Below the pieces are notes generated by a model. The model had not been told where the DNA came from. It searched no databases and worked only from the letters and a program-made list of their open reading frames with translations. Made by a program: the position numbers and the translations under genes. A DNA stretch of 4,131 bases from a virus (lineage: Duplodnaviria; Heunggongvirae; Uroviricota; Caudoviricetes): IMG/VR virus record IMGVR_UViG_2671180770_000018; one strand, written 5' to 3'. The first letter of the stretch is position 1. Each line of letters opens with the position of its first letter. This document shows, piece after piece, positions 1 to 2,900 of the stretch.

Positions 1-324
1 ATGACAAAGGCTGGGATGCCAGAAAGCGTGCGTATTGCCTGAAAATCCAGCCAGCTACAGGGTCGTTCGCACGAAATCTTATTTATTCAACAAAGCCCTT
101 TTGATGTAGAAACTAAGAATGGCCTTCCCTCCACGGTTCAGCTATTTTATGAGGAATCTAAGGATAATGAACCTTTAGCGAATATACATTTTCAAGCAAT
201 AGGTTCTGGTTTTTTAACGTTTGTTAATGCCTGCCAGGAACATGATGACAACAGCTTAAAATTATTTGCTTCGCTGTTAATTTCACTTTCATATTCTAGT
301 GCCTACGCAGACTTATCAGAAACA

Positions 325-648
325 GTGTATATTAATGAAAATAATGAGAGCTACCTGAAAGCTCAGTTTGAAAAATTATCTCAACGTGATATGAAGAAGT
401 ACCTGGGAGAGATGAAGAGTCTGGCAGATGAGGGGGGAATGAAATTTGATGACTATCTGGATAAGATGTCATTTCTGGTGAATGAAGGAAAGCTCGAGCC
501 TGATATTTTAAGCAAAATGCGAGATGCTGCACCGAAATTAATTGCCTTTGCTAAGTCGTTTGACCCAAACTCAAAGGAAAAGATTAAAATACTTACAGAT
601 ACTTCTAATTTAATTTATGATTTATTCGGGGTTAAATCGGGGAAATAA
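325..648 (+). CDS. Hypothetical protein, helical and K/E/L-rich, start codon unresolved (frame open from nt 43)
   Basis: Frame +1 is open from nt 43 to the TAA at 646-648 (201 codons) but has no ATG/GTG/TTG before the GTG at 325, which is where the track ORF starts. No convincing Shine-Dalgarno precedes 325 (agaaaca). The translation is protein-like across the whole open stretch (e.g. YLKAQFEKLSQRDMKKYLGEMKSLADEGG). A hairpin plus T-tract follows at 686-720. No family recognised. Confidence 0.45.
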   Translation: MYINENNESYLKAQFEKLSQRDMKKYLGEMKSLADEGGMKFDDYLDKMSFLVNEGKLEPDILSKMRDAAPKLIAFAKSFDPNSKEKIKILTDTSNLIYDLFGVKSGK

Positions 649-928: not shown

Positions 929-1369
929 ACCCCGCTATTGAGCCTCCTTCACAGTGATGCTGAATAACATAACTCAATGATATATCGATAAAATAATCTC
1001 TACATTTGAAAATGCACGGTAATTCTGAAATGCAAAAAATCAACCAAACCAGCGCAATGCCTGAAAAAACTGACGTTCACTGGAGTGGTCGGTTTAGCGT
1101 TGCACCAATGCTCGATAGGATGTACCGTTTTTGAAAAACAAGTAGTTATACACTTTGTGGGAGCCTATTGGGAACCTGTTATTCTTAGAAAGCATCATTT
1201 GCTCATCACTTCAATTGACCATGGTTAAAGCCAGCTATAAACTTGACAAACGAGGTAACTGGTTGCTTAGGCCCAAGTGGGCACACCATAAGAAGCTCAT
1301 GTTGGTGATGAAGCAACCCATGAAGTATCGAGAATAATTATAAAGTTCACTATCTTTGAGGTTTCTTAT

Positions 1370-1942
1370 ATGTTTTGCGAAGAAAAAGTAGCTCAAATGG
1401 CTGCATACCTACTTCTTAAGAGAGGTGGGCGCATGGCATATCTGAAATTGATGAAGCTGCTCTATCTGTCTAACCGCCAGTCGATTTTGAAGCATGGCAG
1501 GATGATCGGCGAAGATAGCCTTTACTCTATGAAATTTGGACCAGTCATGTCGAATACGCTGAACTTGATTCGCGGTAAGGCTGAAGGCATTGGTGACTAC
1601 TGGTACAACTTGATAGAGACGAACGGGCATAATGTATCGTTGCGTTCAGATCCGAGGGAAATGGATGCAGACGAGGTCTTTGATGAATTGAGTCGTGCAG
1701 ATATCCGGATTTTAGATGAAATCTATTCTCGGTATGGGCATATGAACCGATTTGATCTCGCAAATATGACGCATTTAGAAAGCGTTTGTCCAGAGTGGCA
1801 CGATCCTGGCAATTCTCGTAAGCCTATAGACCTGAAAGAAATGCTGATCAGTGAGGGTAAAAGCGAGGATGAGGCTAATCGCATAATTGGCAAAATGGAA
1901 GAATCTCAGAAACTTAAGGAATTTTCTTTGCAATTATCATGA
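1370..1942 (+). CDS. Panacea-domain (DUF4065; GepA/SocA/PanA-like) protein, putative antitoxin
   Basis: ATG at 1370 with GAGG at 1358-1361 and an 8-nt spacer; 190 aa. The N-terminal two thirds carry what I recognise as the Panacea/DUF4065 hallmark: LKLMKLLYLSNRQSILKHGRMIGEDSLYSMKFGPVMSNTL, then YWYNLIE, then HLESVCPEWHD. The C-terminal 35 residues are an acidic, probably helical tail. The TGA stop at 1940-1942 overlaps the next ATG (ATGA). Confidence 0.85.
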   Translation: MFCEEKVAQMAAYLLLKRGGRMAYLKLMKLLYLSNRQSILKHGRMIGEDSLYSMKFGPVMSNTLNLIRGKAEGIGDYWYNLIETNGHNVSLRSDPREMDADEVFDELSRADIRILDEIYSRYGHMNRFDLANMTHLESVCPEWHDPGNSRKPIDLKEMLISEGKSEDEANRIIGKMEESQKLKEFSLQLS

Positions 1943-2358
1943 CGGATTATCAGCCATACAGGAAAGGAACTGTGCTTGCCCCAACTGGACCATGCAATCA
2001 TCTTCATGTGATTTGTAATGATCCTGTTTATTACCCCGTTAACGATTGTTATTGTGTTTTAGTTGTTAATATTTCTAGTATCAAGGATGGTGTCCCCCAC
2101 GATCCGTCTTGCGTCTTGAATTCTGGTGATCATCGCTTTATCAAGCATCCAAGTTATGTTGTTTACGCTGAAGCTATAATTTGGCGAGTGGATAACATGG
2201 TTAGAAAGCAGCGATCGGGTGAGATTTCTGTTCATGATGATATGCCAGAAGCTACATTCAATAGAATTCTGGACGGTTTTGATATCTCTGATGAAGTTAC
2301 GCCAAAGAACCTTAAATTTAAAAATAAATATTGCGTATCATCTATTGATGATGAGTAA
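1939..2358 (+). CDS. Hypothetical protein translationally coupled to the Panacea gene; candidate toxin/effector with possible MazF/PemK-like fold
   Basis: ATG at 1939-1941 overlaps the upstream stop by 4 nt and has no Shine-Dalgarno of its own (nearest AAGGA is at 1916-1920, too far), which implies coupled translation; 139 aa, TAA at 2356-2358. By-eye similarity to MazF/PemK/Kid toxins: KGTVLAP near the N-terminus, CYCVLVVNISS (cf. MazF CLCVPCTTQ), VLNSGDH (cf. VVLSGQER), AIIWRVDN (cf. SIAWRARG), MPEATFNRILDGF (cf. APEELQLIKAKI). The N-terminal half is also rich in Cys/His. The fold assignment is unverified. Confidence 0.7.
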   Translation: MTDYQPYRKGTVLAPTGPCNHLHVICNDPVYYPVNDCYCVLVVNISSIKDGVPHDPSCVLNSGDHRFIKHPSYVVYAEAIIWRVDNMVRKQRSGEISVHDDMPEATFNRILDGFDISDEVTPKNLKFKNKYCVSSIDDE

Positions 2359-2397
2359 ACAACAGGAATTGTTTCGGTATAACTTCTGGAGTTTTCT

Positions 2398-2571
2398 ATG
2401 GAAGATCAAAAAGCAACCAAGCCACAGGTTAAGTTCGACACAATGAAAGCATTCGTAGGTATGGGTGCTGCTGTTGAAGTTCTGATGAAGGCTGCTCCTA
2501 ATGCGTTCACTCACGCTACTGTCTCTGGTAAAGAGCAGCAGGGTAAGCTTCGTCGTCTCAAAGCAGCATGA
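2398..2571 (+). CDS. Small hypothetical protein (57 aa), below the ORF track cutoff
   Basis: ATG at 2398 preceded by GGAG at 2388-2391 with a 6-nt spacer; open frame to TGA at 2569-2571. Translation: MEDQKATKPQVKFDTMKAFVGMGAAVEVLMKAAPNAFTHATVSGKEQQGKLRRLKAA. Codon choice (ggt, gct, cgt, ctg, aaa) looks like an expressed enterobacterial gene. A strong terminator begins 20 nt after the stop. The overlapping track ORF 2219-2446 is in another frame and lacks these signals. Confidence 0.5.
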   Translation: MEDQKATKPQVKFDTMKAFVGMGAAVEVLMKAAPNAFTHATVSGKEQQGKLRRLKAA

Positions 2572-2590
2572 TCATAGCTGGTGCTTTTTG

Positions 2591-2619
2591 AAAACCCGCC
2601 TTCAGGCGGGTTTTTTCTT
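2591..2619 (+). terminator. Rho-independent terminator, plus-strand oriented, possibly weakly bidirectional
   Basis: aaaacccgcc (2591-2600), loop ttca, ggcgggtttt (2605-2614): a perfect 10-bp stem with a GC-rich core, followed on the plus strand by a T-tract (ttttttcttt, 2611-2620). On the minus strand the hairpin is followed by caaaaag, so termination of the minus-strand operon here should be inefficient. Confidence 0.8.
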
Positions 2620-2900
2620 TAGTGATTTTCTTTGCCCTTCTGTTTGACTGTTCTGACCTGTTCCCACTCGATACGTCCTTCTTCTCGCCTTTTGTCTATG
2701 TATTCCGCAAGATCCTGAATATTGATGCAACGTTTTGCTTTTTGTGATGTGCCGATGCGATATGTTGGAACGGGCAACTTACAAGCGTTTGCTTTTGCTT
2801 CTGCCGTGGCTGGACTCATACCAAAGTACTTTTGGCTAACTGCTGAGAGTTCAATGTTTGGGGTATTGAATTCAGCCATCAGTAAAAACAAGGTGTTCAT
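2619..2900 (-). CDS. PrtN-family small DNA-binding protein (pyocin-activator-like; excisionase-like in enterobacterial prophages)
   Basis: The track ORF is 2619-2927, but the most plausible start is the third in-frame ATG at 2900-2898, which has GGAG (2910-2907) and a 6-nt spacer. The product then begins MNTLFLLMAEF and contains IQDLAEYIDKRREEG, both of which I recognise as PrtN-family features. TAA stop at 2621-2619. Confidence 0.7.
   Translation of the reverse strand: MNTLFLLMAEFNTPNIELSAVSQKYFGMSPATAEAKANACKLPVPTYRIGTSQKAKRCINIQDLAEYIDKRREEGRIEWEQVRTVKQKGKENH

Follow-up and report, generated by a model that had tools for sequence, protein, structure and literature searches.

Just downstream of the Panacea genes panA and panT, in a 4,131-nt stretch of DNA from a tailed-phage record (IMG/VR record IMGVR_UViG_2671180770_000018; this whole stretch is here called the window), lies a small open reading frame (ORF) at positions 2398–2571 with a predicted product of 57 amino acids (aa). 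The question raised by this locus is whether the small ORF is a gene at all and, if so, whether it belongs to the PanA-PanT pair (PanAT) that it follows or to something else. The explanation that we consider best overall, and to which we give an even chance, is that the ORF is a coding gene orphaned from a different two-gene phage cassette, in which it follows the gene for a GNAT-fold acetyltransferase, and that its product may neutralise this enzyme in the manner of an antitoxin.

The length of the ORF alone is no proof that it is a gene, because the window contains 19 ORFs of at least 57 aa, about 12 of which are spurious, and the matter has to be decided by conservation. In homologous loci the reading frame is kept and substitutions are biased towards wobble positions. 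The ORF is intact in 186 of 186 sequences (the window and the 185 loci collected by then), and homologues of 51–60 aa occur in Salmonella, Enterobacter, Atlantibacter, Cronobacter, Franconibacter, Hafnia, Photorhabdus, Brenneria, Edwardsiella, Serratia, Pantoea, Yersinia and Shewanella. Among ten diverged sequences the minimum numbers of changes at the three codon positions are 28, 33 and 73, indels among diverged sequences are all in-frame, and pairwise ratios of nonsynonymous to synonymous divergence (dN/dS) lie between 0.07 and 0.34 in every pair except the window and phage mEp460, which differ at four sites only. When all six frames are compared over 18 diverged homologues, the sense frame alone stays open throughout; stops interrupt the in-register antisense frame in 11 of the 18. 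The ORF also forms a sharp island of conservation, with 79–89% nucleotide identity against 32–54% in the flanking spacer and unrelated DNA downstream, and a purine-rich Shine-Dalgarno sequence stands at the matching position in each of nine diverged loci inspected. Similarity of the protein is still visible at 27–39% identity, where the DNA can no longer be aligned. Judged by these patterns the ORF is under purifying selection at the protein level, and we hold it to be a real coding gene with near certainty.

The features that the initial annotation had read from the letters were all borne out. The Shine-Dalgarno sequence, ATG and 57-aa product are as it described them (Table 1), and its strong downstream terminator begins 18 nt past the stop as a hairpin with an 11-bp stem containing six G-C pairs, followed by a T-run, with a folding energy of −19.4 kcal/mol (z = −3.15 relative to shuffled sequences). 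The expressed-gene codon choice that it noted is reflected in an optimal-codon fraction of 0.72, compared with 0.34–0.54 in six neighbouring genes (the optimal set being that of E. coli usage). The protein is rich in Ala and Lys, as stated (10 and 8 of the 57 residues), and has an isoelectric point (pI) of 10.0. It had been called probably helical, and AlphaFold predicts, with modest confidence (pLDDT 66), an amphipathic helix at residues 15–32, a short helix at 34–37 and disordered tails, of which the C-terminal one is basic and finishes in Ala-Ala. The ORF is indeed absent from the ORF track, as had been remarked, most likely because of a length cut-off (the listing tool has a default minimum of 60 aa), but it was not overlooked elsewhere, as RefSeq already annotates its product as hypothetical protein WP_000390073.1.

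The initial annotation recognised no family for the protein, and searches turned up no named one. The small protein had no match in Pfam at E ≤ 0.1 and none in a profile search of the PDB, and the small protein, the GNAT enzyme, PanA and PanT together matched zero families of PADLOC-DB 2.0 at E ≤ 0.1. The only family found was phrog_2741 (function unknown), which it matches over its entire length (E = 1.1e-34; residues 1–57 against profile positions 1–57 of 57). A phmmer search of 1.84 billion cluster representatives returned only seven clusters and no fused or annotated relatives; cluster members are named 'hypothetical protein', 'phage protein' and, in one case from Escherichia albertii, 'phage tail protein'. 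The exact protein of the window is present on at least 1000 contigs. A membrane peptide resembling type I toxins was considered and rejected, as the most hydrophobic 20-residue stretch scores about 1.05 on the Kyte-Doolittle scale (calculated by hand) and holds both Glu and Lys.

The distribution of the ORF points away from Panacea and towards another partner. Among complete E. coli genomes the small ORF is present in 562 of 5426 (about 10%), this PanAT pair in 208, and a GNAT gene lies upstream instead in 358; as these two counts add up to 566, compared with 562, essentially every copy of the ORF is preceded by one or the other, the GNAT gene rather than PanAT preceding about 63% of copies. 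Every homologue outside E. coli sits behind a GNAT gene. In the 185 loci that we fetched (designated below by L numbers), the GNAT gene and the small ORF occur together in 122, the small ORF alone in 63 and the GNAT gene alone in none. All 63 loci with the ORF alone are Panacea contexts wherever enough upstream sequence is present, and in all 122 paired loci the small ORF is downstream of the GNAT gene. The two genes are still paired where the GNAT protein retains only about 40% identity and the small protein 27–39%, in Shewanella, Pantoea, Yersinia and Serratia. Their association extends from Escherichia to Shewanella and covers no fewer than five prophage positions: the cassette was seen at the dusA attachment (att) end or side, in the interval between antiterminator Q and holin, just past the gene for the CI repressor, surrounded by tail or baseplate genes, next to a prophage portal gene and next to cas3. 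The cassette is mobile among the classic lysogen-expressed slots of temperate phages over this host range. The other suggestion of the initial annotation, an independent small gene, is closer in that the ORF is separate from PanAT, but it misses that the ORF is the conserved partner of another gene, one that is absent from the window.

The native upstream gene encodes an acidic, highly divergent GNAT-fold acetyltransferase of about 178 aa (PHROG 4350). The structural matches of this enzyme include TacT3, AtaT and KacT, and it matched no Pfam acetyltransferase model and no PADLOC family. A profile search of the PDB with the GNAT alignment gave only matches to the HIV gp41 coiled coil, which we disregarded as spurious.

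How the small ORF came to follow PanAT can be read from a comparison of the window with mEp460. By blastn, homology extends to position 1176, is lacking from 1177 to 2384 and resumes with 96% identity from 2385 onwards, so that the right-hand junction falls 13 nt before the ATG of the small ORF. The adjacency of PanAT and the ORF is therefore the product of a cassette swap at the dusA-side end of an mEp460-like prophage, in which the PanA-PanT cassette took the place of the GNAT gene, a 196-nt spacer and the small ORF's own promoter. The incoming 1.2-kb PanAT segment carries a promoter-like site of its own. The copy in the window keeps only the Shine-Dalgarno sequence, ORF and terminator, and with the native promoter and leader gone, any expression would have to come by read-through from panA-panT. 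Co-transcription with panAT is probable from the sequence, given the 39-nt gap, the shared strand, and the lack of a terminator between the genes and the presence of one after the ORF. The small ORF of the window is then an orphan, the third cistron, 39 nt after panT and 5′ of its original terminator. Taking the distribution and the junction together, we think it very probable that it is a member of the GNAT cassette orphaned by replacement and not a part of the Panacea module.

In its native form the cassette is a self-contained two-gene phage accessory unit in the order promoter, GNAT gene, spacer of 90–290 nt, small ORF and terminator. A promoter-like −10 element lies 5′ of the GNAT gene in each copy, and a second promoter-like element follows directly after the GNAT stop in every lineage, with a TGn extension in most. 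In mEp460 the latter element reads TAGACG-N17-TAGGAT, and the TAG stop often lies within the −35. It was seen at L002 3805–4000 (mEp460) and in L091, L094, L097, L099, L101, L102, L104 and L189–L193, and is separated from the small ORF by a poorly conserved leader of about 60–250 nt. The terminator sequence travels with the small ORF into unrelated contexts, and a motif like the window terminator (GCTTTTTG.AACCCGC...GCGGGTTT) follows the ORF in L094, L097 and L104.

The role of the small protein in this cassette is a more tentative matter. We rank an antitoxin-like role first among the functional readings, while holding it only as a possibility, because no GNAT gene was found without the small ORF and because the small protein looks like a labile neutraliser. 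In all 12 lineages the GNAT protein is acidic (pI 4.2–5.5) and the small protein basic (pI 8.1–10.8), with a basic tail and a C-terminus of AA, AVA or AAA, and in four of four lineages tested the optimal-codon fraction of the small ORF exceeds that of its GNAT partner. From the opposite charges, the higher codon adaptation, the separate promoter and the prediction of a single helix we infer a protein that is made in excess and docks on the GNAT enzyme. It would contact the enzyme with its basic tail and the amphipathic helix at its centre and so neutralise it; an excess would be secured by the small ORF's own promoter and strongly optimised codons. It might also be short-lived, given its disordered tails and conserved C-terminal Ala-Ala; a terminal Ala-Ala resembles the recognition signal of ssrA-type tags for ClpX, and this likeness suggests rapid turnover by way of such a degron. 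The GNAT cassette would then be a module of the addiction or abortive-infection type that is expressed in lysogens. The window copy, having no GNAT gene beside it, would have no cognate target and would be drifting or, at most, provide immunity to incoming GNAT cassettes, and it would have no role in the toxicity of PanT or in its neutralisation. Neutralisation of the GNAT enzyme in this antitoxin-like way is, in our estimation, a plausible proposal that is nevertheless somewhat likelier to fail than to hold.

Several observations weigh against this proposal. Of the two proteins the enzyme is the less conserved: proportions of nonsynonymous differences (pN) are 0.05–0.12 for the small protein and 0.16–0.27 for the enzyme, which is the reverse of the usual antitoxin pattern. 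The proportion of synonymous differences (pS) in the small ORF is low as well, 0.29–0.52 compared with 0.75–0.93 in the adjacent GNAT gene (L002, L006–L010 and L097), which is atypical for a type II antitoxin. This low synonymous divergence probably reflects codon selection, and constraint at the RNA level might be another cause; a recent recombination tract was rejected as the cause, because identity collapses to 32–54% immediately 5′ of the ORF. The 90–290-nt spacer, the lack of a DNA-binding domain and the downstream position are likewise atypical of type II antitoxins, and the acidic GNAT enzyme does not look like a tRNA-binding toxin of the TacT/AtaT type. The asymmetry between loci with the ORF alone and loci with the GNAT gene alone goes back to one replacement event, and the reading of Ala-Ala as a degron follows from general ClpX rules. 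Further, a junction that spares the Shine-Dalgarno sequence and ORF exactly could equally mean that the gene was kept for its own usefulness. A hint in favour of the proposal is relaxed constraint in the orphans, as would suit copies that have lost their target: synonymous and nonsynonymous variants number 3 and 8 in orphan copies and 10 and 6 in paired copies, but the signal is weak and not significant (Fisher p = 0.12).

A second weak hint of this kind is that in one further Panacea-context locus (L195, E. coli F2_407_2_2, NZ_CP074756.1) a single nucleotide is missing from the GGG run at codons 22–23 (equivalent to window 2461–2465), which frameshifts the ORF. PGAP annotates no gene there, and the deletion might be genuine or an artefact of sequencing a homopolymer.

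A small basic protein of this kind might instead be an effector on its own that acts independently of the GNAT enzyme, for instance by binding the ribosome, RNA polymerase or a protease, in which case the GNAT gene would merely be a linked or modulating neighbour and the window copy would be fully functional and selectively retained at the exchange. That nothing else in the cassette is as well conserved as the small ORF, in protein sequence or at synonymous sites, fits this idea, as do its very high codon adaptation, the promoter that it natively has to itself, the exchange junction that leaves its Shine-Dalgarno sequence and frame exactly untouched, its intactness in 57 of 57 loci recognised as Panacea contexts and the abundance of the exact protein. 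Yet outside the single PanAT swap the ORF is never found without the GNAT gene, across some 15 lineages and five or more insertion contexts, orphan variants lean towards nonsynonymous changes (including K50E at an otherwise invariant or nearly invariant position), one orphan copy is frameshifted, and in the window the native promoter is lost. We consider both an autonomous effector and a fully functional, selectively retained window copy unlikely.

Still less likely, in our view, is that the acetyltransferase requires the small protein as a cofactor or targeting subunit, or acts on it as a substrate, which would leave the window orphan functionless. The lack of GNAT genes without the small ORF and the complementary charges would suit this idea, and production in excess would suit a substrate too. 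The family has no invariant Lys, however, K50 being replaced by Arg in several members and K31 by Arg or Ala, and so offers no obvious conserved acetyl acceptor; nor is the N-terminus conserved, as residues 2–3 vary.

A third component of PanA-PanT, acting as modulator, chaperone or second antitoxin, was the reading that the initial annotation preferred, and the location of the ORF in the window explains its appeal: it lies a short distance past panT on the same strand, with no terminator-like site between and one directly after, and the arrangement panAT plus small ORF is found in 193 E. coli genomes. PanAT homologues elsewhere are nevertheless two-gene units without the small ORF. In Yersinia phage YeP1 and Klebsiella phage ST13-OXA48phi12.5, PanA-PanT is bicistronic and a convergent gene lies 16–36 nt past PanT. 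A tblastn search of phage records with the small protein matched only five, namely Lys8385Vzw and SKA5, both Panacea contexts, and three mEp460 records; Vibrio and Pseudomonas phages that have PanT homologues were absent among the matches. The GNAT gene upstream in 358 of the 562 ORF-bearing E. coli genomes and in every homologue outside E. coli, and the swap-made adjacency indicated by the junction, speak against this reading too. Kurata et al. (PMC8832971) found that no more than small minorities of PanAT loci have an accessory third gene and considered such genes probably without a general role in toxicity or neutralisation. The window ORF resembles such genes in being a third same-strand gene within one terminator-bounded unit, and differs from a component of the system in that it is not conserved with PanAT homologues elsewhere and owes its adjacency to cassette replacement. 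Already largely refuted by distribution, the Panacea reading is very improbable and close to excluded.

The weakest alternative, that the conserved element is an RNA (a 3′-end small RNA or terminator element) or the frame a chance one, could appeal to the unusually low synonymous divergence and to weak, sub-threshold Rfam matches to terminator-containing families that overlap the 3′ end, but it is contradicted by the wobble-biased substitutions, in-frame indels, dN/dS well below 1, sole open frame, conserved ATG and Shine-Dalgarno sequence and far-reaching protein similarity described above, and, with no Rfam family at its gathering score and the weak matches resting largely on the terminator hairpin, it is close to excluded and hardly to be credited. 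In Rfam 15 at permissive E-values the best scores were 29.8 bits for the rnk leader (cut-off 55) and 24.1 bits for sroH (cut-off 80), and all weak matches include that hairpin. The sroH small RNA, matched at window 2591–2745 on the minus strand (24 bits against the gathering score of 80, E = 0.007), was rejected as a candidate, the terminator hairpin being its only paired part.

Returning to the antitoxin-like reading, the closest known systems are the type II toxin-antitoxin (TA) pairs of a GNAT toxin with a ribbon-helix-helix (RHH) antitoxin, such as TacAT, AtaRT, KacAT and ItaRT. The cassette shares with them an enzyme of about 170–180 aa with the GNAT fold and a small protein, carriage on mobile elements, the structural resemblance of the enzyme to TacT3, AtaT and KacT, and an enzyme gene that is never found without the small gene. 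In contrast to these systems, the small gene here is downstream, with a 90–290-nt gap and its own promoter, and its product has no RHH/DUF1778 domain, or any other Pfam match, and one predicted helix. This GNAT protein is also acidic and fits no Pfam acetyltransferase model, its small partner has changed less than the enzyme has, and the window lacks the enzyme. Because of the missing RHH/DUF1778 domain, the downstream gene and the separate promoter, the pair should not be filed as a member of the GNAT/RHH group.

The order of genes has an analogue in higBA and mqsRA, toxin-first TA operons with an extra antitoxin promoter, whose antitoxins are helix-turn-helix proteins encoded a few nt after the toxin gene. 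As in these operons, the enzyme gene comes first and the downstream small gene has an additional promoter that would allow an excess of product; unlike their antitoxins, the small protein of the cassette is a single helix with no recognised DNA-binding fold, encoded after a long spacer. The rexAB genes of phage lambda are a lysogen-expressed moron or exclusion cassette, and the present cassette resembles them in being autonomous, with its own promoter and terminator, and in occupying moron slots (after CI, between Q and holin, at the att end), although the proteins are unrelated and the likeness is positional only.

Literature searches found no paper on the small protein by accession, PHROG identifier or locus tag, and among papers on GNAT proteins in TA or defence none describing this GNAT and small-protein pair; the supplements of the Panacea and NetFlax papers contained none of five accessions tried. 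The cassette is probably undescribed. A bolder reading, which we regard as doubtful, is that the pair represents an undescribed prophage TA or abortive-infection family, whose neutraliser is an unrelated, strongly expressed and protease-labile single-helix protein, encoded downstream under its own promoter, and whose orphans are anti-addiction immunity genes. If this were true, orphan copies behind swapped-in PanAT would give stand-alone immunity against incoming GNAT-carrying phages. Whatever the role of the small protein, PanAT in the window is a two-gene module of the ordinary sort, and models or constructs of it should leave out the small ORF. The window locus itself would be a relic, and the cassette an experimentally accessible candidate for a novel variant of a TA or defence system. 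The alternation of GNAT cassette and PanAT in the same slot makes the locus a natural experiment on how defence or addiction cargo is exchanged, and the orphan offers a clean test case of whether a small TA-like partner retains function after loss of its enzyme.

Table 1. Features of the 4,131-nt window and the positions they occupy
Feature	Position	Strand	Remarks
yjbM (DUF2713), 3′ part, frameshifted	1–648		RefSeq flags frameshift
5′ fragment of host dusA, displaced	1006–1117	+	marker of the prophage-chromosome junction
Panacea cassette, swapped in	1177–2384	+	no mEp460 homology across this span
Promoter-like site within Panacea cassette	1215–1243	+	
panA, Panacea-domain antitoxin	1370–1942	+	PF13274, E = 2e-19
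panT, toxin of PanA	1939–2358	+	ATGA overlap with panA
Retained piece of the ancestral GNAT and small-ORF cassette	2385–2621	+	Shine-Dalgarno sequence, ORF and terminator
Shine-Dalgarno sequence GGAG	2387–2390	+	7 nt 5′ of ATG
Gene for the 57-aa small basic protein (WP_000390073.1, PHROG 2741)	2398–2571	+	ATG 2398, TGA 2569–2571
Intrinsic terminator	2590–2621 (hairpin and T-run)	+	hairpin 2590–2615
PrtN-family gene, convergent	2619–2900	−	Pfam PF11112, E = 4e-23; RefSeq annotation
3′-5′ exonuclease gene and DUF551 gene	beyond PrtN-family gene	opposite strand	

The window as a whole covers a prophage edge in the E. coli chromosome and is 100% identical to E. coli O103 RM8385 and phage Lys8385Vzw. 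The displaced dusA fragment, for which PGAP calls a partial tRNA-dihydrouridine synthase at the matching position, marks where an mEp460-like lambdoid prophage of the dusA-integrating type meets the chromosome; PMC4482086 describes the dusA integrase family. Together with the adjoining att-side sequence (1006–1176) it is 89% identical to the attP-side region of mEp460. The upstream host gene yjbM is a pseudogene in this strain, with an in-frame stop when 1–645 is translated. Published ribosome-profiling data from E. coli O157:H7 Sakai were set aside, as that strain has an intact dusA and no prophage at the site. The start of PanT is ambiguous: ATG 1939, used in phage SKA5, gives 139 aa, and the start called by PGAP at about 1972 gives 128 aa. 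The overlap of the panA stop with the panT ATG suggests translational coupling and favours 1939.

On the other side of the small ORF, the PrtN-family gene, probably excisionase-like, is the last gene of the leftward early operon and a neighbour outside the cassette. The terminator hairpin lies 3 nt past its stop and may terminate both transcripts, with a T-run of only four T on the minus strand. In E. coli every one of the 361 records with the GNAT gene shows an identity of 99% or more, and this uniformity suggests a very recent spread of the GNAT allele there; identity runs from under 95% up to 100% for the PanAT segment, nearly every record reaching 95%, and from 95 to 100% for the small ORF. 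One copy of the cassette adjoins a type I-E cas3/cse1/cse2 locus (L097 1411–6112, L098 1255–5956). In Hafnia-type prophages a gene for a RelA/SpoT-domain protein lies immediately 5′ of the cassette in the Q-holin interval (L091 3150–4109, L092 3051–4109 and L093 995–1954); its product matches the PADLOC candidate defence family PDC-S33 (E = 1e-112), and its position beside the cassette suggests a stack of defence or moron genes.

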